DNA of 64,000 nucleotides from an uncultured Erysipelotrichaceae bacterium (GCA_900314865.1 OMWW01000002.1:66136-130135), one strand, 5' to 3'. Numbered from the stretch's first letter, positions 3,046-46,125 are shown. Translations and numbers: made by a program. The notes: generated by a model from the sequence alone, not told the origin.

Positions 3046-3084
3046 AAATATACCTCGTGTATCAAAGATACATAATTAACAGTT

Positions 3085-3474: not shown

Positions 3475-3532
3475 ATGAGATTTTGCCTATTTCTAGGCGT
3501 TTAGATTTTATCATTTATAGATAAAAAGTAAA

Positions 3533-23289: not shown

Positions 23290-23400
23290 AACTACATATC
23301 GGCAAACCCGGAGTAATCCGGCGACGCAAAGCTAAAGGGTCCAGTGAAAATTGGATAGCCAGTTGCACTTATAACAAAACCATTTTTGTGCACGTTTGCG
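23290..23400 (+). promoter_or_regulatory. c-di-GMP-I (GEMM) riboswitch with an expression platform.
   Basis: GGCAAACC is followed by a GNRA hairpin (CCGGAGUAAUCCGG), then GACGCAAAGC, then a UCCAGU-GAAA-AUUGGA hairpin. These are hallmark GEMM-I elements. A TATAAT at 23281 precedes it. A downstream hairpin with a U-run (CGUUUGCGGUUUUUUGU) lies before the GGDEF start. Confidence 0.7.
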
Positions 23401-23432
23401 GTTTTTTGTCGGTATTAATTACCGATTTTTTT

Positions 23433-29793: not shown

Positions 29794-31581
29794 TTAATTG
29801 AATTGAGAGTTATAGATTTCGCTATATAGACCACCAAGTTTCATTAAGGAATCATGGGTTCCGGTTTCAACGATGTTACCATCTTTCATGACAAAGATGA
29901 GATCAGCGTTTTTAATGGTGGAAAGTCTATGAGCAATAACAAAGCTTGTTCTTCCTTTGGTCAAGGAGTCCATTGCTTTTTGAATCAAGATTTCGGTTCT
30001 AGTATCAACGTTACTAGTCGCTTCATCTAAGATAAGCATTGGAGCGTTTTCAGTCATCGCTCTTGCAATAGTCACTAATTGTTTTTGACCAGCGGATAAG
30101 GCACTTTCTTTTTGAATAATGGTGTCTAATCCTTGTGGTAAGGTCTCAACATAGTGGGCTAAGTTAGTCTCTTCAAGAATTTCTTTGAGTCGATTTTCAT
30201 CAACGTTCTTCAAGTTATAGACAATGTTTTCTCTTAATGAACCATTGATAACCCAAGTTTCTTGTAAGATCATTCCGAAGACGTCACGGAGTTCCGCTCT
30301 CGACATCTCTTTGATTGATTTACCATCCACTAAGATATCACCACTAGTGAGTTCATAGAATCTCATTAATAAGTTCACTAATGTGGTTTTACCAGCGCCG
30401 GTAGGACCAATAATTGCCACTTTCATACCAGGTTGAATCTTACCAGAGAAGTGTTTGATGGTAAGTTTACTTGGATCATAACCAAAGCACACATCTTTGA
30501 ATTCAACTTCACCACGGATATGAGAGTGATCAAGTAAGACTGGTTTATAACTATCATCATCAAGTTCTGGTTGTTCTAAGAGGTTGAAGACACGGTTACA
30601 AGCAGCGGTACCAAGTTGAATGGTTGAGCTGGCTTGGCCGATTTGCGCGAGTGGTTCTTGGAACAAGGAAACATAGATAATAAATCCAGTAATAATACCG
30701 ATATCGGAAATTTTGCCATTGGCGAATAATAAACCACCAGTAATCAAAACTGCCGCGTAAGTTAAGTAAGAAACAAAGGACATTGCAGGTTCAATTAATC
30801 CACCGATAGCTTGAGATTTGTATAAAACTGAACCAAGGACATTGTTCTTTTCTTTGAATTCTTCAATCTTCATATTTTCAGCATTGAAGGCTTTAATAAC
30901 GAGTTGTCCAGAATAGTTCTCTTCAACCGCAGCGTTAACATCACCAAGGACCTGTTGAGTCTTATCAAATAATGGTAAGGCTTTCTTAAAGGTCAATAAG
31001 ATGATAACTAACATAATTGGTAAGGAGCAAAGGACCACAAACGCCATTTGCCAGCAAGCGATGAACATGGCGATTAAAACACCAATTAACATGACGCCAG
31101 ATTGAACTAACATACTGACTGAGTTTTGTAAGGATGTTGATAAGGTATCAACGTCGTTAGTCATAACAGAGAGGATGTCACCGGTTTGAGTGGTGTCAAA
31201 GAAGTTAAGTGGCATCTTGTTGATTTTTTGAGAAATATCTCTTCTTAAATCCTTAGAGAATTTTTGAATAATAGTGTTAAGGATAAAGGCAGAAGCAAAT
31301 CCACCGATGAAGGATATAGCAATATAAATAATTAATATAGTTGCGTAATGGAGAACGCCATCTAAATTAACATAGAAACGTCCATCAAATATCGCAGCAG
31401 GATTTGGAACTAATTGGTTAGTTAAATTACGGACTGTTCCTGGAGTCAAAATTGTGAATACTACGGAAGTAATAAGTAAGATGATAGAAATAGCAAAAGG
31501 AATGTAGTATTTACGGAAAGCTTTTACGAGGCTGCCAAGTTTATTTTTTTCTTTACGAGCAGCTTTTAATTTTTCACTCAT
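29794..31581 (-). CDS. ABC exporter permease/ATPase fusion, heterodimeric multidrug-type, subunit B.
   Basis: Six TM helices plus an NBD with Walker A (GPTGAGKTT), signature (LSAGQKQ) and Walker B (ILDEATS). Confidence 0.85.
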   Translation of the reverse strand: MSEKLKAARKEKNKLGSLVKAFRKYYIPFAISIILLITSVVFTILTPGTVRNLTNQLVPNPAAIFDGRFYVNLDGVLHYATILIIYIAISFIGGFASAFILNTIIQKFSKDLRRDISQKINKMPLNFFDTTQTGDILSVMTNDVDTLSTSLQNSVSMLVQSGVMLIGVLIAMFIACWQMAFVVLCSLPIMLVIILLTFKKALPLFDKTQQVLGDVNAAVEENYSGQLVIKAFNAENMKIEEFKEKNNVLGSVLYKSQAIGGLIEPAMSFVSYLTYAAVLITGGLLFANGKISDIGIITGFIIYVSLFQEPLAQIGQASSTIQLGTAACNRVFNLLEQPELDDDSYKPVLLDHSHIRGEVEFKDVCFGYDPSKLTIKHFSGKIQPGMKVAIIGPTGAGKTTLVNLLMRFYELTSGDILVDGKSIKEMSRAELRDVFGMILQETWVINGSLRENIVYNLKNVDENRLKEILEETNLAHYVETLPQGLDTIIQKESALSAGQKQLVTIARAMTENAPMLILDEATSNVDTRTEILIQKAMDSLTKGRTSFVIAHRLSTIKNADLIFVMKDGNIVETGTHDSLMKLGGLYSEIYNSQFN

Positions 31582-33326
31582 AATCCTAATTCCTCCTTAC
31601 TTAATTGAGATAACGCAATTTCTTGGTAAACTGGGCAATTTCTCACTAAATCATAGTGTTTGCCAATACCAACCATCTTGCCGTGATCTAAAACGACGAT
31701 TTGGTCTGCGTCCATAATCGTACCAACACGTTGAGCAATAATAACACGGGTGGTGTTTGGAAGTTTTTCAGCAATACGACCTCTGACAACTTTATCAGTC
31801 TTATAGTCAAGAGCAGAGAAAGAATCATCAAAGATTAAGATTTCTGGTTTGGTAGCTACTGCTCTAGCGATACATAATCTTTGTTTTTGTCCACCAGAGA
31901 AGTTCATACCACCTTGAGCGACTTCAGAATCATAGCCATTACGTTTATTCATGACGAAGCCGTCCGCATCGGCGATTTCGGCTGCCCATCTGACATCTGC
32001 TAAAGTCATATCTGGATTCTTAAAGGCGATATTGTCTTTGATAATACCTTTAAAGAGGAAGCCTCTTTGTGGAGCGTAACCAATACGATCTCTTAAATCT
32101 TTTTGAAGAACGTCTTTAACGTTAACCCCATCCACTAAAACTTCTCCACTTGTGGCGTCTGCCATACGTGGAATCATATTAATAATTGTGGTTTTACCAC
32201 TACCAGTTGCACCGATAAAGGCAATGGTCTCGCCTTGTTTCACTTTAAAGGAAATATTAGAGACCGCTTCTTTTTCACTGCCAGGATAAGCAAAACCAAC
32301 GTTTTTAAATTCAATTGTACCTTTTTCTTTGAATTCCACTGGATGATCGGTATCTAAAATTGAGACATCGTGGTCGATAACTTCTTGAATACGTTTCGCA
32401 CAGACAGAAGCTCTTGGCCAGATAACGATAAGAGTGATAATAAGAATGAAGGACATAACGATTTGGCTAGCAAGCATAACGAAGGCATTAGTAGAACTAA
32501 AGGCCGCGGCTGCAGGTGCTACTTCCATACCGTTAATTGTATAAGCACTAACCCATAAGATACATAGTGTTAAGCCCATCATAACCATCATTACGAATGG
32601 TGTGAAGAATGCTAAAACACGACCTGTAAAGATTTGCACTTTTGTAAATTGAGCGTTAACTTCTTCAAATTTACCTTCTTGGTATTTCTCGGCATTGAAC
32701 GCTCTAACGACTCTAACACCAGTTAAGTTTTCTCTTGAAGAGATGTTGAGGTAATCAGTTAATTTTTGAACAATCTTATATTTTGGTGTCACCATCATTA
32801 ATAGAATGGCAACAACCGCCACTAATAAGAAAACCCAAATAGCGGTAACAATGGTTAATGAAGAATTAGCCTTTTGCACCAAAAGAACGATTGACCACAC
32901 CAAAGTAATTGGAGCGACAAACGCTGTCTTTAAGAATGTTAACCAAGCAAGGTGAACATTTTGGATATCGTTAGTGGTTCTAGTAATTAAGGACTCTGTT
33001 GAAAAAGAAGCGAAATCAGAAAGAGCAAATTCATTAGCTCTCTCATAGAGCTTCTCTCTTAAAGAAGTGACTGTACTACTAGCTGCCGCACTAGCGACAA
33101 AACGAATAATAACTTCGACTACTGCCATACATACTGCACAAATAACCATGTATAAGCCATAACGCCAAATCGCATCGACGTTTTGCTCACCCACTGATTT
33201 TGTAAGCAGTTCGATGTTCTGAACAATCGTCATCATGAAGAAAACCTGGCCAAAGGTCAAAATAAAAATCACTACGACCGCGATCCAGTTCTTTGCCTTC
33301 ATGTTTTTGAAAAGTAACTTGAACAT
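31578..33326 (-). CDS. ABC exporter permease/ATPase fusion, subunit A. No C39 peptidase domain.
   Basis: GATGSGKTT, FSGGQKQR, ILIFDDSFSALD. It overlaps the partner gene by 4 nt. Confidence 0.85.
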   Translation of the reverse strand: MFKLLFKNMKAKNWIAVVVIFILTFGQVFFMMTIVQNIELLTKSVGEQNVDAIWRYGLYMVICAVCMAVVEVIIRFVASAAASSTVTSLREKLYERANEFALSDFASFSTESLITRTTNDIQNVHLAWLTFLKTAFVAPITLVWSIVLLVQKANSSLTIVTAIWVFLLVAVVAILLMMVTPKYKIVQKLTDYLNISSRENLTGVRVVRAFNAEKYQEGKFEEVNAQFTKVQIFTGRVLAFFTPFVMMVMMGLTLCILWVSAYTINGMEVAPAAAAFSSTNAFVMLASQIVMSFILIITLIVIWPRASVCAKRIQEVIDHDVSILDTDHPVEFKEKGTIEFKNVGFAYPGSEKEAVSNISFKVKQGETIAFIGATGSGKTTIINMIPRMADATSGEVLVDGVNVKDVLQKDLRDRIGYAPQRGFLFKGIIKDNIAFKNPDMTLADVRWAAEIADADGFVMNKRNGYDSEVAQGGMNFSGGQKQRLCIARAVATKPEILIFDDSFSALDYKTDKVVRGRIAEKLPNTTRVIIAQRVGTIMDADQIVVLDHGKMVGIGKHYDLVRNCPVYQEIALSQLSKEELGL

Positions 33327-33615: not shown

Positions 33616-33912
33616 TTAATTTTCAAGATTTTTGTTCACTGTGATTTTGTTGCAGTACTTGCATCTATACCATGCGTCTGACACTTTTTCCATACAGTGT
33701 CTATTGAGACATTCTGGACATTGCATATTGTCAATTTCATACCATTCTTTTGATTTACCACATCCACCATTAATAGCGGATAGTTGCTCGTCGGTGAGTT
33801 CAACACCTTCATCTTTGGCAAGTTTAAATAGTTCTTCTTGACCATTACACGCTTTGACTTTTGCGATTTGTTCTTCAGTTAAACCTTTTAATAATTCTTG
33901 TTTCATATTCAA
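33616..33912 (-). CDS. Nif11/NHLP-like-leader peptide precursor with a Cys-rich C-terminal core (putative RiPP, bacteriocin or zinc-ribbon peptide).
   Basis: The leader LTEEQIAKVKACNGQEELFKLAKDEGVELTDEQLSAINGG resembles the Nif11-type leader family (LAKEAGFEFTAEEL...ELEAVAGG) and ends in a double-Gly. The core after GG contains 7 Cys: CGKSKEWYEIDNMQCPECLNRHCMEKVSDAWYRCKYCNKI. Confidence 0.5.
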   Translation of the reverse strand: MNMKQELLKGLTEEQIAKVKACNGQEELFKLAKDEGVELTDEQLSAINGGCGKSKEWYEIDNMQCPECLNRHCMEKVSDAWYRCKYCNKITVNKNLEN

Positions 33913-33946
33913 AGTTCTCCGTTATTAATTGTATGTTACCATAGTG

Positions 33947-33968
33947 GTTGCCACAGAAGTGCCACACA
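33947..33968 (-). promoter_or_regulatory. Tandem direct-repeat promoter motif (minus strand TGTGTGGCAC-TTC-TGTGGCAAC-N8-TAACAT).
   Basis: The same architecture (two ~8-bp TGTGRYRC repeats 11 bp apart, then 8 nt, then a -10 hexamer) recurs upstream of the genes starting at 36353 and 43822. Confidence 0.45.
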
Positions 33969-33996
33969 AAAAAGCCGCCCGCTAGGACGACTTAAT
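33967..33996 (-). terminator. Intrinsic terminator for the minus-strand gene 34025..34696.
   Basis: AAAAAAGCCGCCCGCTAGGACGACTTAAT. The plus-strand C/A mismatches become G-U pairs in the minus-strand RNA. Confidence 0.5.
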
Positions 33997-34024
33997 ATGC
34001 ATTCAATTTTAAGAATGAAAATAA

Positions 34025-34696
34025 TTAGATATTAAACACATCTCCTGGAGAAACGATTGCTAATACAGGTTCATTTCTTAAACCGTGTTCAGTAATGAAT
34101 ATTAAAGCGCATCTTTTGTGATCTTTGTTATAGCCAATAAAATATTGTTTGGCGTCAAAAGCAAAGGTGTCTCTCGCCAAGAAAAGATAATATAAATCTT
34201 TACTGTTATTAATATCGAACTTATCTTTAAAATCTTCAATAATGTATGTTTTATCTTCGTCGTATTCTTCGTTAGCTAGAATGGAGAATATTGTTCGCAT
34301 AGAAACAACATACCTTACACATCCTTTGTCATCAAAGATTGGAACATTGGTGATGTGATGATGATCCATAAAACGCATAGCGTGTGATACATCAGTGTCA
34401 GGCGATAGTGTTTTAATATTATCTTTTTTAATTCCTACATCGTACGCTTTTACAACCAATTTATTTATTATTTCTTCTAGTGTTTCTAGTACATAATCAG
34501 CGACGTGAAAAGGAAAATCACCATTAACTTTTGGGGTGTGTGTCAAACAATTACGGATATGTCTTAAAGCATTGAATTCGACAAAGTGTTGTTTTTTGAT
34601 CATCTCAAAGCGATGAGGATCATTTTCTTCGATATATTCAAATGTCTTATACTCATCTAGGAATTTTTGCGTTATTTCAGCGTTATATGTAGCCAT
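34025..34696 (-). CDS. Putative HEPN-like (RNxxxH) domain protein fused to a CBS domain. Function unknown, possibly a ligand-gated RNase or Abi-like protein.
   Basis: FNALRHIRNCLTHTP contains an R-N-x3-H motif typical of HEPN nucleases. The C-terminal IKTLSPDTDVSHAMRFMDHHHITNVPIFDDKGCVRYVVSMRTIF matches the CBS domain pattern. Confidence 0.35.
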   Translation of the reverse strand: MATYNAEITQKFLDEYKTFEYIEENDPHRFEMIKKQHFVEFNALRHIRNCLTHTPKVNGDFPFHVADYVLETLEEIINKLVVKAYDVGIKKDNIKTLSPDTDVSHAMRFMDHHHITNVPIFDDKGCVRYVVSMRTIFSILANEEYDEDKTYIIEDFKDKFDINNSKDLYYLFLARDTFAFDAKQYFIGYNKDHKRCALIFITEHGLRNEPVLAIVSPGDVFNI

Positions 34697-34800
34697 AAAT
34701 CAACATATCCCTTCTATAAATAAATTTTAATCTTTTTTTAAAAGAAAAGCGCACAAATTCTTCTACAACATAAACTTTAAAGGCCAAGTAATTCATCAAA

Positions 34801-34830
34801 AAAAGCCGCCACTGTGGGCGACTTAATTTG
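34801..34830 (-). terminator. Intrinsic terminator for the gene at 34863..36353.
   Basis: AAAAGCCGCCACTGTGGGCGACTTAATTT. Confidence 0.5.
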
Positions 34831-34862
34831 TACAACTAGACATCGTCTAGCTATTTTGCATT

Positions 34863-36353
34863 TTATTGTTCGAGCTGAGGAATTTCAACTTTGTAGTGAA
34901 CCACTAACCTTTTGACCTTAAAGAAGTTAACGTTACTAATATTATCAGGAATACTGATTTTGATTTCGTCTTTTGTAAAGCTATCGATATAGAATTTAGA
35001 AATCTTTTCGTTGTCAGTATCATCGATATTTAATTTGGTATGGGCAAAATTGCCACCAGTAATTGAAAGATCATCTCTTGCGCCCACTTCACTCATATCG
35101 AGCACTAATTCAATGCAGCTAACTTTATCAGGATCGAAGTCTTTGACATCAACCTTATCTTGGTTGCCTTTTCCGTCCGCTTTATAGTATTTACTATAAT
35201 TTTTGTTTAAGCGTAAATAAGGAGTTAGGGCAGATGTGCCTCTAGCGTGTTGATGCCATAAATCATCTTCATCATAGCTTTGAGTTTCACAATGGCCTTT
35301 TCCACTAATGGTGTCAACATAACTTTCGAGATCATAATATGCGCCATCATAAGATTTAACGAATGTATCAGTTTCTTCTTCACGCCACACCATATTATCA
35401 AGCCATTTTTCTTGATAGCATAGTCTAACACCTTGTCTAAAAGTTTCACTTGGTGCTTCGATAAATTCTGCAACAAACTTATAAACACCGTCTTGTTCAG
35501 TTACGAACGTGTAATCAGCATCGGTGCTAATGATTTGTTCGCTGCCATTTAAATGCCATCCCTTAAAGAGACAGAAATTATCATTTTGATAATTATAGAA
35601 TGGGTAAGCATGAATTGTGACAGAAGTTCCATTAGCGACAACTTTATAGCCTTTATTATTCGCTACCGCATTATCGATAGCAACATTGCCTTTTGAGGAA
35701 TCAGAACTCGTTACACTGACATAGGTTTTCGTGCTTTCGCAACTAAAATAATATTTAACAGAATCGATTACCCATGTATTGCCACTATAGAAATAGTCTT
35801 TGTTACCAATATAATAATAAGCACTACCTTCTCTATCAAAACCACTACCTGTGTTTATAACATAAGTGTAATCATATTCTTTTACAGAATGAATACTACT
35901 TGTAGCATTTGTCAGAGTGTCCTTATCTAAATTAGCCATATCAGGATCGGCAAGATAATAGACATATAATGCATAGTAATACCCTAAACTTGTGCCACTC
36001 AGATAATGGCCAGTGATATCCATTCTTGTGACACCTCTAAGTGGGGTTTCGTTGATTAAATAATCATTAGCGCTTGTCATTTCTAGAGCAACACCCTCTT
36101 TAGTGGAAGGAGCTGATTTCGTTTTAAAAACTATATCATTGCCAAGACCAGTTTTAAACGTACCTCTATACACATCTCCATCTTGCACAAAGTTAGATTT
36201 ATTTGATGCGTCGATAGTTAATGTGTAATCATTCTCTGCACGAGTTCGAAGACTAATAAAGTCATTAGTACTCATAAAAGTAGCAATACCAATACATATT
36301 GATAAAGTTACTGTAGTAATAGTAGTAAGAGTGAATAAATCTTTCTTTTTCAT
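34863..36353 (-). CDS. Secreted or surface protein of unknown function.
   Basis: Start reassigned to ATG 36351-36353 (MKKKDLFTLTTITTVTLSICIGIATF..., a signal/anchor sequence) with SD GAGGT. The track's GTG-initiated N-terminal extension contains the promoter -10 TATAAT. Confidence 0.6.
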   Translation of the reverse strand: MKKKDLFTLTTITTVTLSICIGIATFMSTNDFISLRTRAENDYTLTIDASNKSNFVQDGDVYRGTFKTGLGNDIVFKTKSAPSTKEGVALEMTSANDYLINETPLRGVTRMDITGHYLSGTSLGYYYALYVYYLADPDMANLDKDTLTNATSSIHSVKEYDYTYVINTGSGFDREGSAYYYIGNKDYFYSGNTWVIDSVKYYFSCESTKTYVSVTSSDSSKGNVAIDNAVANNKGYKVVANGTSVTIHAYPFYNYQNDNFCLFKGWHLNGSEQIISTDADYTFVTEQDGVYKFVAEFIEAPSETFRQGVRLCYQEKWLDNMVWREEETDTFVKSYDGAYYDLESYVDTISGKGHCETQSYDEDDLWHQHARGTSALTPYLRLNKNYSKYYKADGKGNQDKVDVKDFDPDKVSCIELVLDMSEVGARDDLSITGGNFAHTKLNIDDTDNEKISKFYIDSFTKDEIKISIPDNISNVNFFKVKRLVVHYKVEIPQLEQ

Positions 36354-36383
36354 ATTATTTACCTCACACATATTATACGCGTG

Positions 36384-36404
36384 CTGTGTCACAAAAGTGT
36401 CACA
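36384..36404 (-). promoter_or_regulatory. Tandem direct-repeat promoter motif (TGTGACAC-TTT-TGTGACAC-N8-TATAAT).
   Basis: Seen directly in the minus-strand sequence. See the shared motif at 33947 and 43862. Confidence 0.45.
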
Positions 36405-36744
36405 AAAAAGGACGCCACTGTGGGCGACTTAATTTTTATTGATTTAGCCTAAATTTAGAGCCTTACCATATGTGTCGAATGATTCCTGTGAAAGGAGAGA
36501 AAGTATGAAAAATGATCAAGTGTTAGTAGATCTTAATTTGTGTTTTGTGTTTTGATTAATTAATTATTTGTGAGTAAGTTATCTATGTCAATTGTTGAAT
36601 AGAGATTTTTCGCGCTAGAAAAATGCGTTTTTATTATTTCTTTTCTCATTTTTTTACACTGAATCATACTAAATAAATAATTCCTTGAATTACGAAGTTA
36701 AAAGTTATATAACTTTAGATACTTTGTTTAGGAGAGTGAATACT

Positions 36745-38019
36745 ATGAAAATTAGAAATATCATTGCTACTTCGTTATTAGGGCTCATATCTATTGCTGG
36801 ATTATCTTCTTTATTAATCAATAAGACTAATAAACCAGTTATCGCTAAAGCAGAAGATGAAGTAACCATGAAAAGAACCTATGTCGGAATTGATCGAGAT
36901 GGAAAAATGGAGAACGCTGATCAATATTTAAATGCTGAAGGAGTTAAGGCGGTTGTTTGGTGTTTTACTGGAGATTTTAGTCTTACTGAATCAAACGGAG
37001 AATTATTTGATATCACTGTGATTGGTCCTCGACTTGGAATTACTGAATTACCAGTTAATCTTCCAAAAAGTAGAATCTTTAGAACTCCTATTTCCACTCC
37101 AGCAGGAATTACATCTCTAAAAGATGTCACTATTTATAATATGTCTAAAGAAGATATTATTAGATATGACTCTCCAAACACTATTACAGTAGGCGATTGG
37201 GATTATGCTACTTATACCCTCGGCATGAGAGATGAAAAATTTAAATTTATGCCATCAGGCACTACTGTTACTTTAGATCTCACTGAATGCGATATCAATT
37301 GGTTAGATGCTTACGCGACACATTATTTTGTAAGCTATTGTTATTTTGATTACATGTTTAGCTATACATCTATTTTTGTGAAAATGGAATTTGACACTAC
37401 ATTAAATAAATTAGTCGCAACTACCACTCAAGATATTTGGTGTACAGGTATTATCTTTACTAGAAACGATCCAAATGGAACTCCATATAGCTGGGAGTCA
37501 AAATGGAATCAAACCACTAATCAAGATGATGTAGAAAGTTCATGCAACTTCAAAATGTTAGAAGGCAAATTTGGAGATAATTATAACTGTGCCTCAGTAG
37601 ATGATATTGAACGTACTGAAATATACGCACAAAAGATATTAGATAAATTTACTTGTACCGGAGAAACTAGAAGCTTCTCTAACGATGATTGGGTTTATTT
37701 CTTCTTTGATTTACAATATGAATCTTATTCATTTAAAGATTTGCTTAAAACCTCAGTGGCTAAAGAAAGTTCTACTTATCTTAGAGAAGTAGCCTTATAT
37801 AGATATGACTATGTAGTTTTCTATAAAGATTATGGCTTATATGATTATATGGATAGAGGTAGCTCTCCAAATAAAGCCTTCTCAGCAAAGAACACATCCA
37901 CTAGTGGCGTCTTAAATGATTTGAGCTCTGATAGCACTCCAATATTAATTGTTGTTGCCGCTACTGCTACTTTATCATTAACCGCTTTACTTATTATCAA
38001 AAAGAAAAAAAGTAGATAA
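36745..38019 (+). CDS. Surface-anchored protein of unknown function.
   Basis: Start moved to MKIRNIIATSLLGLISIAGL (signal peptide; SD AGGAGAG). A C-terminal hydrophobic segment is followed by a KKKKSR tail, as in the nuclease. Confidence 0.6.
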   Translation: MKIRNIIATSLLGLISIAGLSSLLINKTNKPVIAKAEDEVTMKRTYVGIDRDGKMENADQYLNAEGVKAVVWCFTGDFSLTESNGELFDITVIGPRLGITELPVNLPKSRIFRTPISTPAGITSLKDVTIYNMSKEDIIRYDSPNTITVGDWDYATYTLGMRDEKFKFMPSGTTVTLDLTECDINWLDAYATHYFVSYCYFDYMFSYTSIFVKMEFDTTLNKLVATTTQDIWCTGIIFTRNDPNGTPYSWESKWNQTTNQDDVESSCNFKMLEGKFGDNYNCASVDDIERTEIYAQKILDKFTCTGETRSFSNDDWVYFFFDLQYESYSFKDLLKTSVAKESSTYLREVALYRYDYVVFYKDYGLYDYMDRGSSPNKAFSAKNTSTSGVLNDLSSDSTPILIVVAATATLSLTALLIIKKKKSR

Positions 38020-38027
38020 TACAAATT

Positions 38028-38058
38028 AGAAATAAAACGCGCGGACATCCGTGCGTTT
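38028..38058 (+). terminator. Intrinsic terminator.
   Basis: AAAACGCGCGGACATCCGTGCGTTTTTTTATT. Confidence 0.55.
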
Positions 38059-38393
38059 TTTTATTGCAATAGATATCCACCAGACAGTCCGGTGATTTTT
38101 CATAGTCGGGCAGATATTAGCCCTCTTTGATACACATTTCTCTATTTAAATAGTCACTATACCAAGATACTTCTTCGTATTCCAAAGTGCAATTCCAAAG
38201 TGCAATTACTCAATTTTGCCCTTTGGGATAAAGTGTTTTTGTTATAAAAAGCCGCCCATTATAGACGACTTAATTTACATTGATTTACAGTTTTGTATAA
38301 AATCACTTTTCGTATTATGCCGCACTTTCATCCCTTCGCGAGCCCCTGAAATGTACAAAAAAGATCTACCCTTCGATAGATCCTTTAATGTAA

Positions 38394-39824
38394 TTAATCT
38401 TGGTAGTGTTTTATCGCATCATAGATGGTCTTTTCTTTTGATTCATGACCATATTTATCGACGTCTAATTTATTTCTCACTTCGTGGGTCAAAGAGCACG
38501 GTCCTCCAATGCATCCAGTAAGACATCCCATACCTTCAATGAAGTTAAAGTCAACAGTGCCAGTTTTAGCTTTCATAAGTGCTAAACGACAATTATCTAA
38601 ACCATCAACTGAGATTGGTTTAACTTCAAATGAACTTCCTTGTTCTTTAAGAGCTTCTTTAACTGCATCGGTAAGTCCGCCGCTACGAGCGAAGATTCTG
38701 CCATAGTATGAAGCATTATCTAGTGGCGATTCTTCTAAAGAAGCAAAATCAATTTCTTTAGCATCGATCATCGCTTGAAGTTCTTCAAATGTTAAAGCAA
38801 CATCAACATATGGAGCGACTCTTTCATCTTTGATTTCTTGTTTCTTAGAAATACATGGTCCAATAAACATAATCTTACAATTTGGATTATGCTCTTTGAT
38901 CCATTTCGCAATGGTTGCCATAGGCGATAAATTATGAGAAATCTTATCTGCTAAAGTTGGGAAATATTTCTTAATGAAAGTTACGAATGTTGGACAGCAA
39001 CTAGAAGTTAAGAATCCTTTTTCTTCGAGTTCTTTAGCCTCAGCGTAGCTAACCATATCTGCTCCTAAAGCAGCTTCAATTACACTTCGATAGCCAAGTT
39101 TTTGAATAGCGGTCACAACTTGTCCTAAGGTAACACCTTTAAATTGTGATGAGATTGAAGGAGCGACAATCGCATAGACCGGATATTTATTTGAATAATC
39201 AGAATCTTTCAAAATATCGATTGCATCTTTGATGAAACTTTTATCCATGATTGCACCAAATGGGCATTGATAGACGCAAGCTCCACATTGGACACACTTT
39301 TCATCATCGATTTTGGCAGAGTGATCGTCATTTGTAGAAATAGCTTTAACCTTACAAGCTTGTTCACATGGTCTAAGATAGTTTTGAATCGCGTTATATT
39401 GACATGCTTTCGCACACATTCCGCAGTTGATACATTTAGTTTTATCGATGATTGCAGTTCTATTTACTTCGTCAAATCTAATCGCATCTTTACGACAAGC
39501 TTTTTGACAACGATGGGCAATGCAACCGCGACATCTATTCGTGACTTCATATCCACCTAAAGGACATTCATCACAAGCAATCTTGACGACTTCAACAATA
39601 TTTTTAATATTCTTATTGCCGCCTAAAGCTAATTTCATTCTTTCTAAAACGATAGCTCTTTCTTTATAAATACAGCATCTCATCGTGGATTTTGGTCCCG
39701 GTGATATTCTTAAAGGAATCTCGTTATATTCTTCTAAAAGAGTATCATTAAATAATCCTCTAGCGATTTCTTTGAGAATCTTATACTTGAGTTCTTGAAC
39801 ACTTGTATCAAATCTTGTATCCAT
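38394..39824 (-). CDS. hydA: [FeFe] hydrogenase catalytic subunit with N-terminal ferredoxin-like [4Fe-4S] domains.
   Basis: H-cluster motifs L1 (TSSCCP), L2 (GPCISKKQE) and L3 (EGMGCLTGCIGGP), plus three CxxCxxCxxxCP clusters at the N-terminus. Confidence 0.8.
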   Translation of the reverse strand: MDTRFDTSVQELKYKILKEIARGLFNDTLLEEYNEIPLRISPGPKSTMRCCIYKERAIVLERMKLALGGNKNIKNIVEVVKIACDECPLGGYEVTNRCRGCIAHRCQKACRKDAIRFDEVNRTAIIDKTKCINCGMCAKACQYNAIQNYLRPCEQACKVKAISTNDDHSAKIDDEKCVQCGACVYQCPFGAIMDKSFIKDAIDILKDSDYSNKYPVYAIVAPSISSQFKGVTLGQVVTAIQKLGYRSVIEAALGADMVSYAEAKELEEKGFLTSSCCPTFVTFIKKYFPTLADKISHNLSPMATIAKWIKEHNPNCKIMFIGPCISKKQEIKDERVAPYVDVALTFEELQAMIDAKEIDFASLEESPLDNASYYGRIFARSGGLTDAVKEALKEQGSSFEVKPISVDGLDNCRLALMKAKTGTVDFNFIEGMGCLTGCIGGPCSLTHEVRNKLDVDKYGHESKEKTIYDAIKHYQD

Positions 39825-39836
39825 AGTATCTGCTCC

Positions 39837-41015
39837 TTAAAAGTAAGTTACTTTGACGTTTTTACCCATCAATTTTAGCTTTTTAGCTAATTTGTCAATT
39901 AAATGCATTTTGGTCGTAAAGTTGATGCCGGTATCTTCTCCTTGATGAGCGTTGTTAATCGCGCAGCCTACAAAGAAATTAATATCGGTAGCTTGTTCAA
40001 ATAAACATTTAGCAATTTGACTCGCTCCATCGATCTTATAAAACCAGGTGACGAACAAGTCGTTTTGTTTTAAATAGTTATCAGCATATTCTAAAACTTT
40101 ATTAATCGTAATGATCCCTTCGGTAACTAAATCAACTCCTTCGATTGAAGCAGTTGGAGGTACTTCTTTATCTAAATATTCAGTTTGTAAAACCAAAGGT
40201 TGATTTAAATATCTAGAAACGAGATTACCAGTTGTTCCTCCTGAGACGATATGAATACCTTCTTTAGCAAAAAATAATGAAAGTATTTCTTCATCATCCT
40301 CTTTGTTAGTTGGAGGACCAATTAATAAATTAACTTGTTGTCTTTCTCTGATTCTTACCACTGCGACAGTGGTGTCATCACCTGGTCGGCCATTATATAG
40401 TTCATTACATTGACTTGCTAATAGAGTGGCTAACGCCTTAGAAGAATAGTCATTTCTATAGAAAATAGACATAAACTCTTTAATCTGAGGCATATCCCAT
40501 CCAAAATTCAATGTTTCACCCACTCCTGCATATTTAACACCATCGCTCATTAAGATAAATGTGTCATATAATGAGGCTTCAATTTTCGCATGATAAATAG
40601 TCTTACCATCGATAACCATTGATGAATAAGATAAATCCATTACTTTGCCATTGCGAATCATAAATGGTTCGGGATTATCAAAGTTATAAATATCAACATA
40701 TTTGTTGTCTTGAATTTTGATGATAGTGAAAGTTGAATAAGCAACTTTTCTCACTTTACATACTGGCAATGTATTAGCGATACATCTAATGCATTCCTTG
40801 ATGGAAATATCTCCTGCAATCATTGAGGAAAGCATCTTGCTAGTGAGAGTGGATAAAATATTGGCTTTCACTCCACTACCAAGACCATCCGCCAAAACCA
40901 AAATCTTTGTTGATTCATCTTTAGAAGTGACTTCTACATGGTCACCACAAAGCTCTTCACCAAAATGATTAAAGGAAAGATATCCAATTTCCGTCATGTA
41001 ACGATTATTTATCAT
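39837..41015 (-). CDS. PP2C-type (SpoIIE/RsbU-like) serine phosphatase.
   Basis: LADGLGSG and MSDGV metal-binding motifs. It sits between hydS and hydA, as in group C sensory hydrogenase loci. Confidence 0.65.
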   Translation of the reverse strand: MINNRYMTEIGYLSFNHFGEELCGDHVEVTSKDESTKILVLADGLGSGVKANILSTLTSKMLSSMIAGDISIKECIRCIANTLPVCKVRKVAYSTFTIIKIQDNKYVDIYNFDNPEPFMIRNGKVMDLSYSSMVIDGKTIYHAKIEASLYDTFILMSDGVKYAGVGETLNFGWDMPQIKEFMSIFYRNDYSSKALATLLASQCNELYNGRPGDDTTVAVVRIRERQQVNLLIGPPTNKEDDEEILSLFFAKEGIHIVSGGTTGNLVSRYLNQPLVLQTEYLDKEVPPTASIEGVDLVTEGIITINKVLEYADNYLKQNDLFVTWFYKIDGASQIAKCLFEQATDINFFVGCAINNAHQGEDTGINFTTKMHLIDKLAKKLKLMGKNVKVTYF

Positions 41016-42684
41016 CTTTAATTGTGTCCTTTAATGAAGTTAAGGCGACCTTTGTCTCCGCGGTAGTCTCACCTAAAAGTGAAGCGATTTCTTGTACCGC
41101 TCTCATATTCTTTTCGACAACTTTATCGGTGATTTCGAGAGATTTTCTCACAACCTCTTCATGTTTTTGTCTACTGAGTTCTTCGTTAGTAATGTCTTTC
41201 ATAATTGAAAGAAGAACATGGAATTTTTCATCATAGACAATCGTATTTTCAATGTATTTGTTATATTCACTTAAATATGATTTGCGGCGGAAAACCATCT
41301 CCCCACCTAAGGCGTTACAGAAAACGGTAGGATCTAAAATTGAGGAAACGTTTTTATGAATAACAATACTTGGCTTTTCAATATTGATGATACGGCACAT
41401 CGTTTTGTTTAATGATTGAATATTGAGTGATTCATCGAGCACTAAAATGCCATTTGGTGAATTGCTGACTATGTTATCAGAGAACGATTCTGCTTTTTCC
41501 ATCAAATAGGGAAGGCACATTTCTAAAGCGGCCTTGCCTTGAATGATGGCAATAGCTTTTTCTCGACATGTATCATATCCACAAGAACCACAGTTAAGAA
41601 TCTTTGATTTTTCGGTCTTACCCATCTCGATGAGTTTGGCTTCGATTTCTTCTTCACTTGGTGTGGCTTCTTTAGCACCGATTGAATAATAGTTTTTAGA
41701 AATATCTTTGTAACCAATCTTACCTTCAGTGAAATCTAGATCACCTGCACTCTTATTGATATCAATGTAGCTAGCGATAACGCTCTTTTCTTTATTGGAA
41801 ACTGGGCCATTGATGCAGCTACCTTCACAGCTGGACATTTCGATGAAACATTTATGAATCTTACCAGCTAAGATATCTTCAATGACTCGACGTGAATTCT
41901 CAACTCCATCGACTGCTAAATATTGATAATCTTTGTTGGAGCATTCCATCGTACGAAGAATGCCACCAGTGGTTGGGAATAGGCGGGCTTTACTTTCTTT
42001 CTTTTTCCAATCATATTTGACTTCCTTAAGGGTGATATTCTCACTCTTGAGCCAGTCTTCTAATTCTTTAAAAGTTAAGGCTACATCAATGATATCAAAA
42101 TTTAAATCTGCTTCATTCTTTTTAGCGATACATGGTCCAACAAAGACAACCTTTGCTTCTGGATCACGGCTTTTAATATCTTTTCCATGCGCGAGCATAG
42201 GCGAAAGAATATTTGCCAAATATTTTCGAGCTTCTGGATAATGCTTTTGAATTAGTAAATTGATTGAATGACAGCAAGAAGAGATGATAACGTCTCGATC
42301 CTTTTCTTGAAGCATTTCATCGTAGGCTTTTTTAACGATGGTCGCGCCAATCGCGGTTTCTTCAACTGCATAGAAGCCTAATTTCTTTAAAGCATTTACA
42401 ATCTCATCCATTGAAGTGTATGAGAAATAGCTGATGAAGCTTGGAGCTAAAGAAACATATACTTTCTTATTGTTCTTGAAAAGATTCTTAACAACATCAA
42501 CATCATTACGAATCACTTTAACTTCTTGAGGACACACTAAAAAGCAACGTCCACATAAAATACAACTATCTTGAATAATCTGAGCTTTATTTGAGGCGAA
42601 AGAAATCGATTTAATCGGGCAGTGACGAATGCATTTATAACAGTTCTTACAGTTTGTTGTTTTACTTTGTAAACAGTATTCCAT
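41005..42684 (-). CDS. hydS: Sensory [FeFe] hydrogenase HydS (group C) with a C-terminal PAS domain.
   Basis: N-terminal [4Fe-4S] motifs and degenerate H-cluster motifs (ISSCCHS, VGPCIAKK, EMSSCEGSCINGP), plus an extra CGSCGYDTC cluster and a PAS-like C-terminal ~120 aa. Confidence 0.75.
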   Translation of the reverse strand: MEYCLQSKTTNCKNCYKCIRHCPIKSISFASNKAQIIQDSCILCGRCFLVCPQEVKVIRNDVDVVKNLFKNNKKVYVSLAPSFISYFSYTSMDEIVNALKKLGFYAVEETAIGATIVKKAYDEMLQEKDRDVIISSCCHSINLLIQKHYPEARKYLANILSPMLAHGKDIKSRDPEAKVVFVGPCIAKKNEADLNFDIIDVALTFKELEDWLKSENITLKEVKYDWKKKESKARLFPTTGGILRTMECSNKDYQYLAVDGVENSRRVIEDILAGKIHKCFIEMSSCEGSCINGPVSNKEKSVIASYIDINKSAGDLDFTEGKIGYKDISKNYYSIGAKEATPSEEEIEAKLIEMGKTEKSKILNCGSCGYDTCREKAIAIIQGKAALEMCLPYLMEKAESFSDNIVSNSPNGILVLDESLNIQSLNKTMCRIINIEKPSIVIHKNVSSILDPTVFCNALGGEMVFRRKSYLSEYNKYIENTIVYDEKFHVLLSIMKDITNEELSRQKHEEVVRKSLEITDKVVEKNMRAVQEIASLLGETTAETKVALTSLKDTIKDDK

Positions 42685-42686
42685 AG

Positions 42687-42950
42687 TTAGCCCTCAACAC
42701 GAGAAAGAACATATTTTTCAAAGACATCATCAAAATTCTTTGGAGTGACACCAGTGATGATTTCATCATCAACTTGAATAGATACACCAGCGATACCGCA
42801 CTTGCCTAAACAGAAAGTACCTTTTAAAACAACTTTGTCTTCGAGTTTTTCTTTAGCAAGTCTCGCTTTGAATAATTCGATGATTTCATAGCTTCCTTTT
42901 AAGTGGCATGAAGAGCCAACACATACAAGAACTGTCATATTACACCTCAA
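42687..42950 (-). CDS. Thioredoxin-like [2Fe-2S] ferredoxin (HydC/NuoE-like small subunit).
   Basis: VLVCVGSSCHLKGS...CLGKCGIAG has the four Cys of the thioredoxin-like 2Fe-2S fold. SD GAGGTG. Confidence 0.65.
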   Translation of the reverse strand: MRCNMTVLVCVGSSCHLKGSYEIIELFKARLAKEKLEDKVVLKGTFCLGKCGIAGVSIQVDDEIITGVTPKNFDDVFEKYVLSRVEG

Positions 42951-43126
42951 GATTTTGTAACAAAATCAATATATCAATAGTCTACTAAAAATATCGATTA
43001 TCTTCCATAACAAATATTGAACATTAGAAAACAAAAAATCGTCAATATAATGACGATTTAATGTTAAAAGGGGGCTTATTCGCCAACCGGTTTCAAAGCC
43101 CCCATTAAATCTTATTGATTAATATG

Positions 43127-43822
43127 TTAACAATCCCAAGTTACAGTTATGCTGTCAAGAAATAAAGCGCAATATCCGCCACCAGAAACAACCGCTGTAC
43201 TAAAAATTTTAATTTCGAATAAAGCATATCTAATCACATGATTTTGATCTGGCTTTGTCCATGTATGAGTGTAGTGATGATCATTTATGACAGTGTTGCT
43301 GGAAAATTCCCCTTGTTGATAGAGTTCGTCTTCACTAATAGGATTATTTATACATTTATTAACATCATAATCTTCGCCAAAAAACCTAACTGTCGCACTA
43401 TAACTGGTACTATTTTGATTGTCAGCGCCTGGAAGCAAATGGAACGAGAATGAGAATGATTGCAAGTTATTGACACCAACTGCAAACGTAGTTTTTAAGT
43501 CATGGGAGTTGTCATTGACTGGATAATCGGTCCAATAGAAACAATCGTTTTGAACACCAAATCCATGTTGATTACCCCAGGTTACGGTATTTGTTCTTGC
43601 AGAAATTGCACTACGATTCACGGTAGGAGCAATAGTTTTTTCGTCGTCTATGTCGCTGCTCCAATAGGTATTTCCCACACCCTGATCAAATGTAAAACTC
43701 TTTTCGCTTGCTAACACTTTATTGAATGAAGGTAATACTTTACCTGTTTGAGTTGTAATGATTGTCAATGCTGTTAATGTTGCTGCCGTTATAGACGCTA
43801 ATAATAATCCTTTATTTTTCAT
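43127..43822 (-). CDS. Secreted protein of unknown function.
   Basis: Signal peptide MKNKGLLLASITAATLTALT. Its promoter carries the tandem TGTG repeat motif. Confidence 0.55.
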   Translation of the reverse strand: MKNKGLLLASITAATLTALTIITTQTGKVLPSFNKVLASEKSFTFDQGVGNTYWSSDIDDEKTIAPTVNRSAISARTNTVTWGNQHGFGVQNDCFYWTDYPVNDNSHDLKTTFAVGVNNLQSFSFSFHLLPGADNQNSTSYSATVRFFGEDYDVNKCINNPISEDELYQQGEFSSNTVINDHHYTHTWTKPDQNHVIRYALFEIKIFSTAVVSGGGYCALFLDSITVTWDC

Positions 43823-43861
43823 ATTTTCGCACCCTCAAAATGCTTATAGATATTATCATTT

Positions 43862-43883
43862 TTGTGTAACAAAAGCACCACAA
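43862..43883 (-). promoter_or_regulatory. Tandem direct-repeat promoter motif (TGTGGTGC-TTT-TGTTACAC-N8-TAATAT).
   Basis: Same spacing and architecture as the motifs at 33947 and 36384. Confidence 0.4.
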
Positions 43884-43977: not shown

Positions 43978-44850
43978 TCACTGATACAGAGAATTAATAA
44001 TCCAGTTCTTAATAAACTCTTTTTCTTCTTCGGTGTGCATATAGTGTTCCGCACCTTGTTTTATCGTTAATTTAGAGTTTGGGTGTTTAGCAAGAAAATC
44101 AGCGATGTTTTCAATATAAATAACATTGTCTCTTTCTCCATATAGAATTTCGGTTGGAACTGTCCAATTATCAGGATGATTTTCTAAGCTTTTGTAAAAG
44201 TTGTAAGAAATCGATGTCTTATCATCTATTTTAATCACTCTTTCTTGTTTGAGTGTTTCTAGGTATATGTCTTTTGACATCATAATTCCAATAATTAATT
44301 GATGCATGTCTGCAACTGGAGAAATAAAGAATGCTTGTTTGATGTTGAAATTGCTTAAATATTCATAAGCATAAAAAGCACCAATGGAGTTAGCAATTAC
44401 TATGATCTCTTTATAATTCTTTGTGATTTTTTCAAACTCGTTTATTATCGTGTCTTTTAATTCCCAAGGATTCCCATCTTCATAATCGAGCCCAACAACA
44501 TCATATTCATCTTTTAAATAAGAGTAGTCTTTGGCTTCTTCAGCAGATCCATATAACCCATGAATATACACCGCTACTTTCTTAGTTTTTCTTTGCTCCA
44601 TTCTCCAATCGTCTAATTGTTTATCAATCCTTTCAACTTCAAAAAGTTCATTAGCGTCTAACATGTATGTTCTTAAAAGAAGAAGAATCTTCTCATAAGT
44701 CATATCAGCGTCGCCTTTCTCAATATGAGAAATAACTGATTTCCCAGAGTACCCTAAAGATTCCGCCAATTCATCTTGAGTTAGTTTTCTTTTTTTTCGA
44801 AATTGTTTGATTTTTGGTCCAATAGTTTCTTTAGACATATGTATATTCAC
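43978..44850 (-). CDS. XRE-family HTH domain fused to an alpha/beta-hydrolase domain.
   Basis: The N-terminus (IKQFRKKRKLTQDELAESLGYSGKSVISHIEKG) is an HTH_3 domain. The C-terminal ~200 aa has an esterase-like nucleophile elbow (IANSIGAFYAYEY) and an alpha/beta-hydrolase layout. Confidence 0.55.
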   Translation of the reverse strand: MNIHMSKETIGPKIKQFRKKRKLTQDELAESLGYSGKSVISHIEKGDADMTYEKILLLLRTYMLDANELFEVERIDKQLDDWRMEQRKTKKVAVYIHGLYGSAEEAKDYSYLKDEYDVVGLDYEDGNPWELKDTIINEFEKITKNYKEIIVIANSIGAFYAYEYLSNFNIKQAFFISPVADMHQLIIGIMMSKDIYLETLKQERVIKIDDKTSISYNFYKSLENHPDNWTVPTEILYGERDNVIYIENIADFLAKHPNSKLTIKQGAEHYMHTEEEKEFIKNWIINSLYQ

Positions 44851-45255: not shown

Positions 45256-46125
45256 TTACTCAACAAATCTACCAGCGAAGTCGACCAATCCTAATGATTC
45301 GTGATATCTATTGTAGACCCAGTCATATCTCGCCATTCTATCAAGAGAGGTTTCTTCGGGTGTAACGTCGTCGTCATTTTCAACTCCATCAGTACGTTTG
45401 AAGTACTCTTTGACATCAGCACCAGGAATTGAATTATATGTGGTTATTGTATATTCCCAAGAATCTTTAAGTTCGTTTTTGTTGGTGTCGCTTCCTTTAC
45501 TACTATCATGACAAACAGAATAATCATTCCATTGAGCACTATTAGCGCACCATTTAGCAATACGGGTGAAAGCTTCATACTTACCAAAAGAAGCATCGTT
45601 GTTTTCATTTTCATCTTTTGATTCTTGAATTGTAACTCTATTAACACCAGAACTGTTAACAGTAACGTTAATAGTTTTATTTAAGATGTTGGACAATGTC
45701 TCATCAGCTTGTCCACCTTTGGAACGGTAAACAACGACATTTGTCCAATAATTACTATCTGTATAGCCACTTGGAACTGCTACTTCCAAAACATATTTAT
45801 CATTTGGAACAATTTGCTCAAGGTGAGCCCAAGCTTTTTCTTCGTTATTGTTGAAGAAACACGCCCATGTTTCTGTGTTTTTTTGCACGCCTGCATCTTC
45901 ATATGTGTACCACCAATTTTTGACATTGATGAGGTTTACATAAAATGCATTACCTGCTATAGCAGCGCCTTCATGAATAGTAATTGTGTTATCCACTCTT
46001 GTATAAGCTTTTGCTTGATATGCTAGTTTTAATTCGATATTACCATTTGTTGTAGCGGCCAAACCAATAACCACGCCACAGGATAATATAGAAGTGATAC
46101 CAGCGATTAATAAACTCTTTTTCAT
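45256..46125 (-). CDS. Lipoprotein of unknown function.
   Basis: MKKSLLIAGITSILSCG lipobox. Canonical TTGACA-N17-TAACAT promoter upstream. Confidence 0.6.
   Translation of the reverse strand: MKKSLLIAGITSILSCGVVIGLAATTNGNIELKLAYQAKAYTRVDNTITIHEGAAIAGNAFYVNLINVKNWWYTYEDAGVQKNTETWACFFNNNEEKAWAHLEQIVPNDKYVLEVAVPSGYTDSNYWTNVVVYRSKGGQADETLSNILNKTINVTVNSSGVNRVTIQESKDENENNDASFGKYEAFTRIAKWCANSAQWNDYSVCHDSSKGSDTNKNELKDSWEYTITTYNSIPGADVKEYFKRTDGVENDDDVTPEETSLDRMARYDWVYNRYHESLGLVDFAGRFVE

Follow-up and report, generated by a model that had tools for sequence, protein, structure and literature searches.

LytTR-type sites (ComE, PlnC, AgrA) consist of 9-10-bp direct repeats ~12 bp apart, with a period of ~21-22 bp, and the WalR (YycF/VicR) box, TGTWAH-N5-TGTWAH, has an 11-bp period and secreted or cell-surface proteins of Firmicutes as its targets. 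Promoters with an extended -10 element can be independent of the -35 element. PHO boxes comprise two 11-nt direct-repeat units, on which PhoB is bound head-to-tail and contacts sigma (PMC4415409); Mycobacterium tuberculosis PhoP uses 7-bp repeats with a 4-bp spacer (PMC4832192); and SARP boxes have direct repeats at distances of 11 or 22 bp, the 3' one lying 8 bp from the -10 element, with the afs box spanning about -40 to -19 (PMC10936776). Here we describe a box of two direct repeats, also of 11-bp period, at the -35 position of three minus-strand genes for exported products in a 64,000-nucleotide stretch of DNA from an uncultured Erysipelotrichaceae bacterium (GCA_900314865.1 OMWW01000002.1:66136-130135), called the window throughout. 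The box recurs before genes for exported products in other genomes, mostly from the ruminant gut, and is linked in both search directions to one family of receiver-domain proteins. A response regulator of this family (receiver plus divergent OmpR/PhoB-type winged helix), encoded outside the window, probably binds the repeats head-to-tail and activates these -35-less promoters.

A direct-repeat box in place of the -35 element

The window (64 kb, ~35% G+C) matches rumen metagenome contigs near-identically, and parts of it are 95-97% identical to the NCBI metagenome-assembled genome (MAG) 'Bacilli bacterium C4 bin12'. Among MAGs, GCA_034185265.1 is its closest relative. Three minus-strand sites share the pattern TGTKRCAC-N3-TGTKRCAM, followed after 8-9 nt by a -10 hexamer. 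The sites and their target genes are as follows.

33948..33966, minus strand: site 1 box; repeat 1 (33966-33959) TGTGGCAC, then TTC, then repeat 2 (33955-33948) TGTGGCAA
Site 1 spacer, minus strand: CCACTATGG, 9 nt between repeat 2 and the -10 hexamer
33933..33941, minus strand: site 1 extended -10, TGG followed by TAACAT (33938-33933)
36386..36404, minus strand: site 2 box; repeat 1 (36404-36397) TGTGACAC, then TTT, then repeat 2 (36393-36386) TGTGACAC
36372..36377, minus strand: site 2 -10 hexamer, TATAAT, after the 8-nt spacer AGCACGCG
43864..43882, minus strand: site 3 box; repeat 1 (43882-43875) TGTGGTGC, then TTT, then repeat 2 (43871-43864) TGTTACAC
43850..43858, minus strand: site 3 extended -10, TGA followed by TAATAT (43855-43850), with the spacer AAAAATGA, 8 nt after repeat 2
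33616..33912 (or 33906), minus strand: target 1, a peptide of 96-98 aa whose Nif11-like leader ends in NGG and whose core is Cys-rich and zinc-ribbon-like
34863..36353, minus strand: target 2, a 496-aa signal-peptide protein with a weak PKD-like match
43127..43822, minus strand: target 3, a 231-aa signal-peptide protein with no known domain

All three repeat pairs of the original prediction were found, each with the 11-bp start-to-start distance it had given; its 8-nt spacer to the -10 hexamer holds at sites 2 and 3, whereas site 1 has 9 nt. The 11-bp distance also recurs in 158 non-redundant external instances, from which a position profile was built, and at site 2 the sequence TTTTGTGACAC is a perfect 11-bp tandem duplication. 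TGn directly precedes the -10 hexamer at sites 1 and 3 (extended -10), and the external profile shows TG + TAnnAT at the same offset as at site 1. Start codons follow at 33912 or 33906 (site 1), 36353 (site 2) and 43822 (site 3). A consensus promoter scan calls none of the three sites as a -35/-10 promoter; the -35 element is therefore missing. The degenerate pattern of the original prediction, which was derived from these very sites, has three matches in the 64 kb, all of them here, and none in 100 shuffles. A consensus refined on other genomes (TGTKRCACWTYTGTKRCA, <=2 mismatches) returns exactly the same three sites in the window, against a mean of 0.35 in 20 shuffles. Nearby genes lack the motif, as had been noted. 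A further match to the degenerate pattern with two mismatches, TGTGGTCAATGTGTTACAA, lies at 61240-61258 (plus strand) within a 964-aa oxidoreductase gene; it has no -10 element or gene context and is probably due to chance.

The external instances show a common promoter anatomy. An A ~7 nt after the -10 hexamer is conserved and is likely the transcription start; relative to it, the repeats span about -40 to -22. In the window, starts at this distance would fall at about 33926, 36365 and 43843 on the minus strand. Two further features lie outside the search pattern: TG at -15/-14 in ~70% of the 158 instances (an extended -10), and a conserved T-tract ahead of repeat 1, so that the true unit looks like an 11-mer, TTTTGTGRCAC, present twice. 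The gap between repeat 2 and the -10 hexamer is 9 nt in 136 instances and 8 nt in 13. A ribosome-binding site and start codon, likewise no part of the search pattern, stand ~20-30 nt past the -10 hexamer, and every instance is oriented towards its downstream gene. At the -35 position the consensus is CACTTT, which matches TTGACA at none of six positions.

Terminator-like hairpins, each with a T-run, stand in front of two of the window sites.

33972..33993, minus strand: AAGTCGTCCTAGCGGGCGGCTT; 9 pairs, 5 of them G-C, ending directly at repeat 1 of site 1
36414..36428, minus strand: hairpin directly before site 2

G-U pairs are possible in the site 1 hairpin on the minus strand only, and the same type of hairpin precedes the box in the external loci L012, L013-L015 and L088. 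A near-identical hairpin sequence (AAGTCGCCCACAGTGGCG...) lies on both sides of the 496-aa gene (36428-36414 and 34824-34803, both minus strand), and a sequence-related hairpin, AAGTCGYCC...GGCGGC, lies ahead of boxes in L012, L013-L015, L088, L091, L096 and L110. These recurring hairpins suggest that hairpin-promoter-gene cassettes have been duplicated.

Conservation and occurrence of the box

Orthologues of the 231-aa protein at 79, 55 and 51% identity (L012, L010 and L011, respectively) all have the box before a TATAAT hexamer.

L012: TGTGGCAC-TTT-TGTGACAC
L010: TGTTGCAC-TTT-TGTTGCAC
L011: TGTTGCAC-TTT-TGTTATAC

The box is likewise present before orthologues or paralogues of the 496-aa protein with 34-87% identity (L013-L017, L020, L051, L100, L103 and L113). 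Comparison of orthologous promoters thus follows the box down to 34% protein identity, and before orthologues of 34-55% identity it is kept where the flanking DNA is not. The original view of the repeats as a genuine shared cis-element at the -35 position is borne out. In L013-L015, consecutive genes each have their own box, mostly with a hairpin in front (three boxes in L014 and in L015, four in L013), and the L013 series includes a homologue of the window peptide gene. In dozens of loci, genes for homologous peptides are preceded by the site 1 box as well.

A strict pattern, TGTGRCACTTTTGTKRCA-N9-10-TAWHAT, was searched against IMG/VR and a 596-Gb GTDB reference set. It matches 98 stretches in the GTDB reference genomes, against 0.4-2 expected by chance as estimated from base composition; a phage origin of the box was rejected, as IMG/VR gave no match. 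By record name, the 98 are mostly ruminant-gut MAGs or Hungate isolates, most of them named 'Bacilli', 'Bacillales' or 'Erysipelotrichaceae', with several matches per genome and up to five in 8 kb. Other carriers are Lachnospiraceae (AC2029, Oribacterium P6A1 and Pseudobutyrivibrio ruminis), Oscillospiraceae and further Clostridia, plus a few single contigs binned elsewhere. With this many boxes in related genomes, the 'small regulon' of the original prediction does not stand: the regulon is large. In L010 (1-14374), a conjugative type IV secretion cluster (type IV secretion pilin, VirB4-like ATPase) has at its end the homologue that shares 55% identity with the 231-aa protein, in keeping with horizontal spread. 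Two further boxes follow this homologue, one before an operon of TetR-like, receiver plus winged-helix regulator and HipA_C-like genes, and the other before a gene for a 68-aa peptide with a leader ending in GG (GG-leader).

Genes downstream of the box

The targets were classified in a census of 165 non-redundant instances, from loci fetched by orthologue or by motif. Of these, 74 stand before GG-leader (Nif11-like) peptides and 55 before signal-peptide proteins or lipoproteins, so the proposal of a regulon of exported proteins holds. The remainder are split between 18 before other genes, a few of which look secretory too, and 18 with no open reading frame (ORF) called. Most GG-leader peptides are 90-104 aa long, with the leader M(N)MKxELLKGLTEEQIAKVKACK...DEQLxAVSGG and cores with medians of 47 aa and 6 Cys; 60 of 69 cores have >=2 CxxC motifs, and Pfam gives weak zinc-ribbon matches. 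Such peptides with Cys-rich cores stand under the box at window 33616-33906 and in L035, L085, L110, L115 and others, and the family forms tandem arrays of up to five, a box before each. In L029, a radical-SAM/SPASM maturase gene and a GG-leader peptide gene each stand behind a box.

The window peptide gene is monocistronic, with a hairpin downstream at 33604-33588. Against NCBIfam the peptide gives only weak matches, to GG-leader bacteriocin families. It does not match Pfam Nif11 (PF07862), and its L013 homologue scores 23.4 bits against a cut-off of 23.8; the leader ending in GG is present. The window has no transporter with a C39 peptidase; the ABC pair beside the peptide gene (29794-33326) has no peptidase domain and has its own canonical promoter.

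A candidate regulator linked to the box

The best candidate for the protein that reads the box, judged from sequence and gene order, combines a receiver domain with a divergent OmpR/PhoB-type winged helix, and its usual partner is a histidine kinase of the PF06580 type with seven transmembrane (7TM) helices. The reference member of this regulator family is the 254-aa receiver-domain protein of the L010 operon, where the box stands before the TetR-like gene and the HipA_C-like gene comes last. By tblastn with this protein, 14 further motif-selected loci have a homologue (40-76% identity). In 15 such loci the regulator homologue ends 6-250 nt upstream of the box on the same strand, and the gene ahead of it usually encodes a membrane histidine kinase of 423-660 aa (PF06580 + HATPase_c). 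In Lachnospiraceae AC2029 (L026), for example, the kinase gene occupies 741-2723 and the regulator gene 2763-3545, with the box at 3771. The linkage also appears in the reverse direction, among 80 metagenome loci fetched solely by the C-terminal domain of the regulator, 37 of which hold close homologues (>=67% identity). The box (<=2 mismatches) lies 4-113 nt past the regulator stop codon, on the same strand, in 20 of the 37, and the total is 28 matches in 163 kb against ~0.6 in shuffles. One locus fetched by regulator identity, L116, has the order phosphoenolpyruvate carboxykinase, kinase, regulator, box, STAS and SpoIIE partner-switching genes, with the box 9 nt past the regulator stop codon; autoregulation of this chromosomal kinase-regulator operon was rejected, the kinase gene having no box upstream.

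Loci with distant regulator homologues (43-54% identity) lack this box, and several have instead other 11-bp tandem repeats with a -10 element.

L170: GGTGCGGT-TTT-GGTGCGGT-N8-TATAAT; a similar box is found in L175
L157: four GGGGCTnTTTG units downstream of a distant regulator homologue

In both L170 and L157 the gene next after the repeats encodes a receiver-only protein. Across Clostridia (L025, L040, L050, L052, L157 and L170) the order is conserved as kinase, regulator, 11-bp tandem repeats with a -10 element and small receiver-only protein, with a lineage-specific repeat sequence. The architecture is kept and the repeat sequence altered, as expected of co-evolving regulator-operator pairs. 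We note that the regulator family often adjoins partner-switching genes (STAS, SpoIIE-HATPase_c_2 and STAS-APH; L116 8717-14252, L198-L200 and L072), and that in some genomes the regulator follows an APH/choline-kinase-like protein in place of the histidine kinase, with no box downstream in those loci.

The candidate regulator has a PF00072 receiver domain. This domain most resembles the BtsR/LytR type, in keeping with the PF06580 kinase, and NCBIfam models for BtsR and LytR cover only residues 1-121. Pfam Trans_reg_C matches 4 of 9 diverse C-terminal domains (best E 1.4e-5), whereas Pfam finds no LytTR domain and detects no BTAD domain in the regulator. Nearly all matches in a profile search of PDB sequences with the output domain are OmpR/PhoB-type winged helices or SARPs (SaeR, DrrD, DrrB, KdpE, EmbR, AfsR and ToxR; E 0.02-2). 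An AlphaFold2 model follows the order of a winged helix, with a C-terminal hairpin after three short strands and three helices, and the top Foldseek matches are full-length OmpR/PhoB regulators (E ~1e-10, ~220 aligned columns). After the wing comes a conserved tail of ~45 residues (...CD.Y...GEYM.QYSW), modelled at a predicted local distance difference test score (pLDDT) of <50.

The window itself encodes no response regulator by Pfam across ~40 of its proteins, and tblastn of the window with the candidate regulator and with neighbour proteins from regulator-bearing loci, kinases included, finds no homologue. The regulator is most likely encoded elsewhere in the genome, outside the window.

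Proposed mechanism and its alternatives

The proposed scheme starts from a sigma-A-type promoter that would have, in place of a -35 element, a 19-22-bp operator of two direct repeats (TTT-TGTKRCAC twice, 11-bp period) at ~-40 to -22, with the -10 hexamer, often extended by TGn, 8-9 nt downstream. The 7TM PF06580-type histidine kinase would usually phosphorylate the regulator, predicted to join a receiver to a divergent OmpR/PhoB-type winged helix that ends in a short SARP-like tail. A regulator dimer would then bind both repeats in tandem, head-to-tail, standing in for the missing -35 contact and recruiting RNA polymerase as PhoB and SARP activators do. The genes of its regulon, each transcribed independently and insulated by terminators, would encode Cys-rich-core peptides with GG leaders and surface proteins with Sec signals or lipoprotein signals. 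We infer from sequence that the regulator binds the box, that it activates rather than represses, and that it answers to a sensed signal. Activation is the most likely mode because the geometry of the box equals that of PHO and SARP boxes. Of the activator types put forward in the original prediction, an OmpR-type, class II-like activator is the best fit, given the PHO-box/SARP geometry and the OmpR/PhoB-type winged helix, and the LytTR type falls away with a period of 11 bp rather than ~21 bp and no LytTR domain.

Several observations weigh against this scheme. Sequence gives marginal evidence of a winged helix, for the reference protein Pfam detects no output domain, and the mean pLDDT of the model is 72.9. 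The regulator gene is absent from the 64-kb window and from the closest MAG loci fetched. No box match at <=2 mismatches was found in 17 of the 37 close-homologue loci; among these, inspection finds a related pair of repeats, TGTTGCAG/TGTTGCGT, in L128 and L134, and a weak pair in L121. A regulator subgroup beside an APH-like kinase (L198-L200) has no box downstream, and the regulators of L026 and L097 (40-47% identity) adjoin the same box, yet their putative recognition helices differ. Finally, a protein bound at -40 to -22 could repress, because ~70% of the boxes have an extended -10 element able to work without a -35 element.

That last point leads to the first alternative, in which the box is a repressor operator: the promoters would be able to fire alone via extended or perfect -10 elements, and the bound protein, the same regulator or another, would keep RNA polymerase blocked until freed by a signal. 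The TG at -15/-14, the near-consensus -10 hexamers and the overlap of the box with the RNA polymerase footprint all accord with such a role. The -35 region, however, is filled by CACTTT, with none of six positions agreeing with TTGACA; the 8-9-nt register to the -10 element is that of PhoB and SARP activators (PMC10936776, PMC4415409); and repressor sites seldom hold so strict a -10 register over hundreds of promoters. Repression, the main rival, is unlikely.

It is also improbable that another protein reads the repeats, such as a WalR-like or other OmpR-family regulator or the XRE helix-turn-helix (HTH)/hydrolase protein, with the receiver plus winged-helix family merely a regulon member or frequent neighbour. 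The XRE-HTH/hydrolase gene at 43978-44850, proposed as a candidate in the original prediction, is rejected: it has a homologue in only 1 of the 98 motif-selected loci, whereas the receiver plus winged-helix regulator lies beside the box in 15 loci and in 20 of the 37 loci chosen by regulator, and XRE proteins typically bind inverted repeats. This stands against the presence of XRE-type genes near some boxes (that one, L012 451-816 and L013 11548-12132). The half-site does resemble the WalR box, but the TGTGRC consensus breaks WalR positions 4-5, with one of six window half-sites fitting. Some loci of the regulator family lack a box; set against this, box and family are linked whichever of the two is used for the search, in Bacilli as well as Clostridia, and where the regulator is distant the repeats have another sequence.

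Recognition of the repeats by an alternative sigma factor of the ECF-like or TcdR/UviA-like kind is very improbable. Dedicated sigma factors do sometimes drive bacteriocin and toxin genes, and TGTNAC resembles some ECF -35 elements, but the -10 element here is the canonical housekeeping TGnTAtAAT rather than the ECF CGTC type, the same 8-mer occurs twice at one helical turn with neither copy at 16-18 bp distance to the -10 element, and no sigma-factor gene occurs among the neighbours of the 15 regulator-adjacent boxes. The ECF, WalR and LytTR readings are out on sequence, spacing or domain grounds. A sigma-54 promoter (TGGCAC-N5-TTGCW, its GG and GC 10 nt apart, with no TATAAT at -10) was rejected, as TGGCAC at site 1 has a partner, TGGCAA, that is one base out of register, GG is missing from sites 2 and 3 and a canonical -10 element is conserved; so was a CRP/FNR site (TGTGA-N6-TCACA inverted repeat), the copies here being direct.

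It is hardly credible that the sites resemble each other by chance or as the trace of a small mobile repeat (of the miniature inverted-repeat transposable element type) with no regulatory role: the hairpins upstream of sites 1 and 2 are indeed alike, and one hairpin sequence stands at either side of the 496-aa gene, hinting at module duplication, but the 98 strict matches exceed chance expectation, orientation and start-codon distance are fixed, the box is kept before diverged orthologues whose flanks are not, the hairpins are of many different kinds and the targets are mutually unrelated.

Other features of the window

The region divergent from site 2 was considered as a source of a kinase or regulator and rejected: the 444-aa ORF there actually encodes a signal-peptide protein of 424 aa that is anchored in the membrane at its C terminus. 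A box lies 122 nt upstream of the L012 orthologue, whereas the window copy has none. In the intergenic region between site 2 and this 424-aa surface-protein gene, a small ORF at ~36497-36547 (plus strand), MKNDQVLVDLNLCFVF*, has a strong ribosome-binding site (GGAGAG); it could be a leader or signalling peptide, or nothing.

A known RNA element at the sites was rejected, as Rfam gives only two elements, both elsewhere in the window; they head the following list, which ends with two protein-coding features.

3085-3474, minus strand: transfer-messenger RNA gene
23291-23370, plus strand: c-di-GMP-I riboswitch, directly 5' of a GGDEF/HAMP protein gene (23388-24980)
38394-42950, minus strand: cluster of a 2Fe-2S thioredoxin-like protein, a sensory-type [FeFe] hydrogenase (Fe_hyd_lg_C + FeS + PAS, 559 aa), a SpoIIE/PP2C phosphatase and a 476-aa [FeFe] hydrogenase
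46382-47977, minus strand: insertion-sequence-type DDE transposase (DDE_Tnp_1_6), between a 289-aa gene (45256-46125) and rpsF-ssb-rpsR

The hydrogenase cluster and the 231-aa gene appear to be absent from the related MAG locus L088, because the flanking genes of the window sit close together there.

Significance and comparison with known systems

The mechanism class is classical, and the value of the system lies in its regulon, regulator subfamily and ecology rather than in a new principle. The box sequence, the regulator subfamily (for which no curated Pfam or NCBIfam model extends beyond the receiver), the pairing with a LytS-type kinase and the rumen regulon of zinc-ribbon-like GG-leader peptides and surface proteins appear to be undescribed; a literature search of limited coverage, which leaves novelty unproven, found no account of the box sequence, the regulator architecture or GG-leader zinc-ribbon-like peptides. 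If the activator model holds, TGTKRCAC-TTT-TGTKRCAC with 8-9 nt and a -10 element predicts a regulon of secreted peptides and surface proteins in rumen Bacilli that are abundant yet uncultured and in several rumen Clostridia, and names the likely pair of sensor kinase and regulator. The box offers an in-silico handle for new bacteriocin-like peptides (74 here, mostly with CxxC...CxxC cores) and a testable case of SARP- or PhoB-like activation geometry in low-GC Firmicutes, and the cultured carriers Lachnospiraceae AC2029, Oribacterium P6A1 and Pseudobutyrivibrio ruminis make direct testing possible. More speculatively, and doubtful as it stands, this may be a horizontally spreading signalling system of the ruminant gut, in which a LytS-type 7TM kinase and a LytR-like receiver plus 'mini-SARP' regulator would switch on GG-leader zinc-ribbon-like mini-proteins by the dozen, each from its own promoter and perhaps forming a new class of bacteriocins or signals, together with surface proteins, and which would have spread across Bacilli, Lachnospiraceae and Oscillospiraceae via conjugative elements as in L010. 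If true, this would be the first phosphorylation-controlled SARP-like activator outside actinomycetes.

Among described systems, WalR shares TGT-initial hexamer direct repeats, the 11-bp period and secreted or surface targets. Positions 4-5 are G/T and R here, however, so that only the TGTTAC of site 3 fits among the six window half-sites, and external instances have the consensus TGTG[G/A]C; Pfam Trans_reg_C hardly detects the linked regulator, which is therefore no orthologue of WalR. The LytTR peptide-pheromone regulons of class II bacteriocins (ComE, PlnC/D, BlpR and AgrA) are alike in being two-component systems with many separately promoted GG-leader genes and direct repeats that replace the -35 element; the receiver here is nearest to the LytR/BtsR type, and 74 of the 165 instances precede GG-leader peptides. 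In contrast to those systems, the winged helix is not a LytTR domain, the period is 11 bp and the kinase is of the PF06580 type with 7TM helices, not of the AgrC/ComD-type HPK10 family; nor has a pheromone gene been found.

The PHO box has the same 11-bp direct repeats in place of a -35 element at a short fixed distance from the -10 element, and the fold of the regulator best matches the OmpR/PhoB family. The half-site differs, TGTKRCAC here against CTGTCAT, as does the regulon, which consists of exported peptides and surface proteins and not of phosphate genes. Unlike PhoB and PhoP, the regulator has diverged so far that most members escape Pfam Trans_reg_C; it also has an extra C-terminal tail of ~45 residues, and has a receiver and kinase of the LytS/BtsS-LytR/BtsR type (PF06580).

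The SARP systems (AfsR, ActII-ORF4 and DnrI) share 11-bp repeats, a box at ~-40 to -20 and a poor -35 element, and their targets are secondary-metabolite or antibiotic-type genes (PMC10936776). Sites 2 and 3 have the SARP spacing of 8 nt to the -10 element; at site 1, as in 136 of the 158 external instances, it is 9 nt. Unlike SARPs, in which an OmpR-type DNA-binding domain is followed by a BTAD domain, the regulator has an N-terminal receiver and no detected BTAD domain, and its hosts are low-GC rumen Firmicutes, not actinomycetes. EmbR and AfsR are nevertheless among the best PDB sequence matches to its DNA-binding domain, at a marginal E of 0.13-1.9, and the tail motif ...YRGEYM.QYSW resembles, by eye, the start of a BTAD domain.

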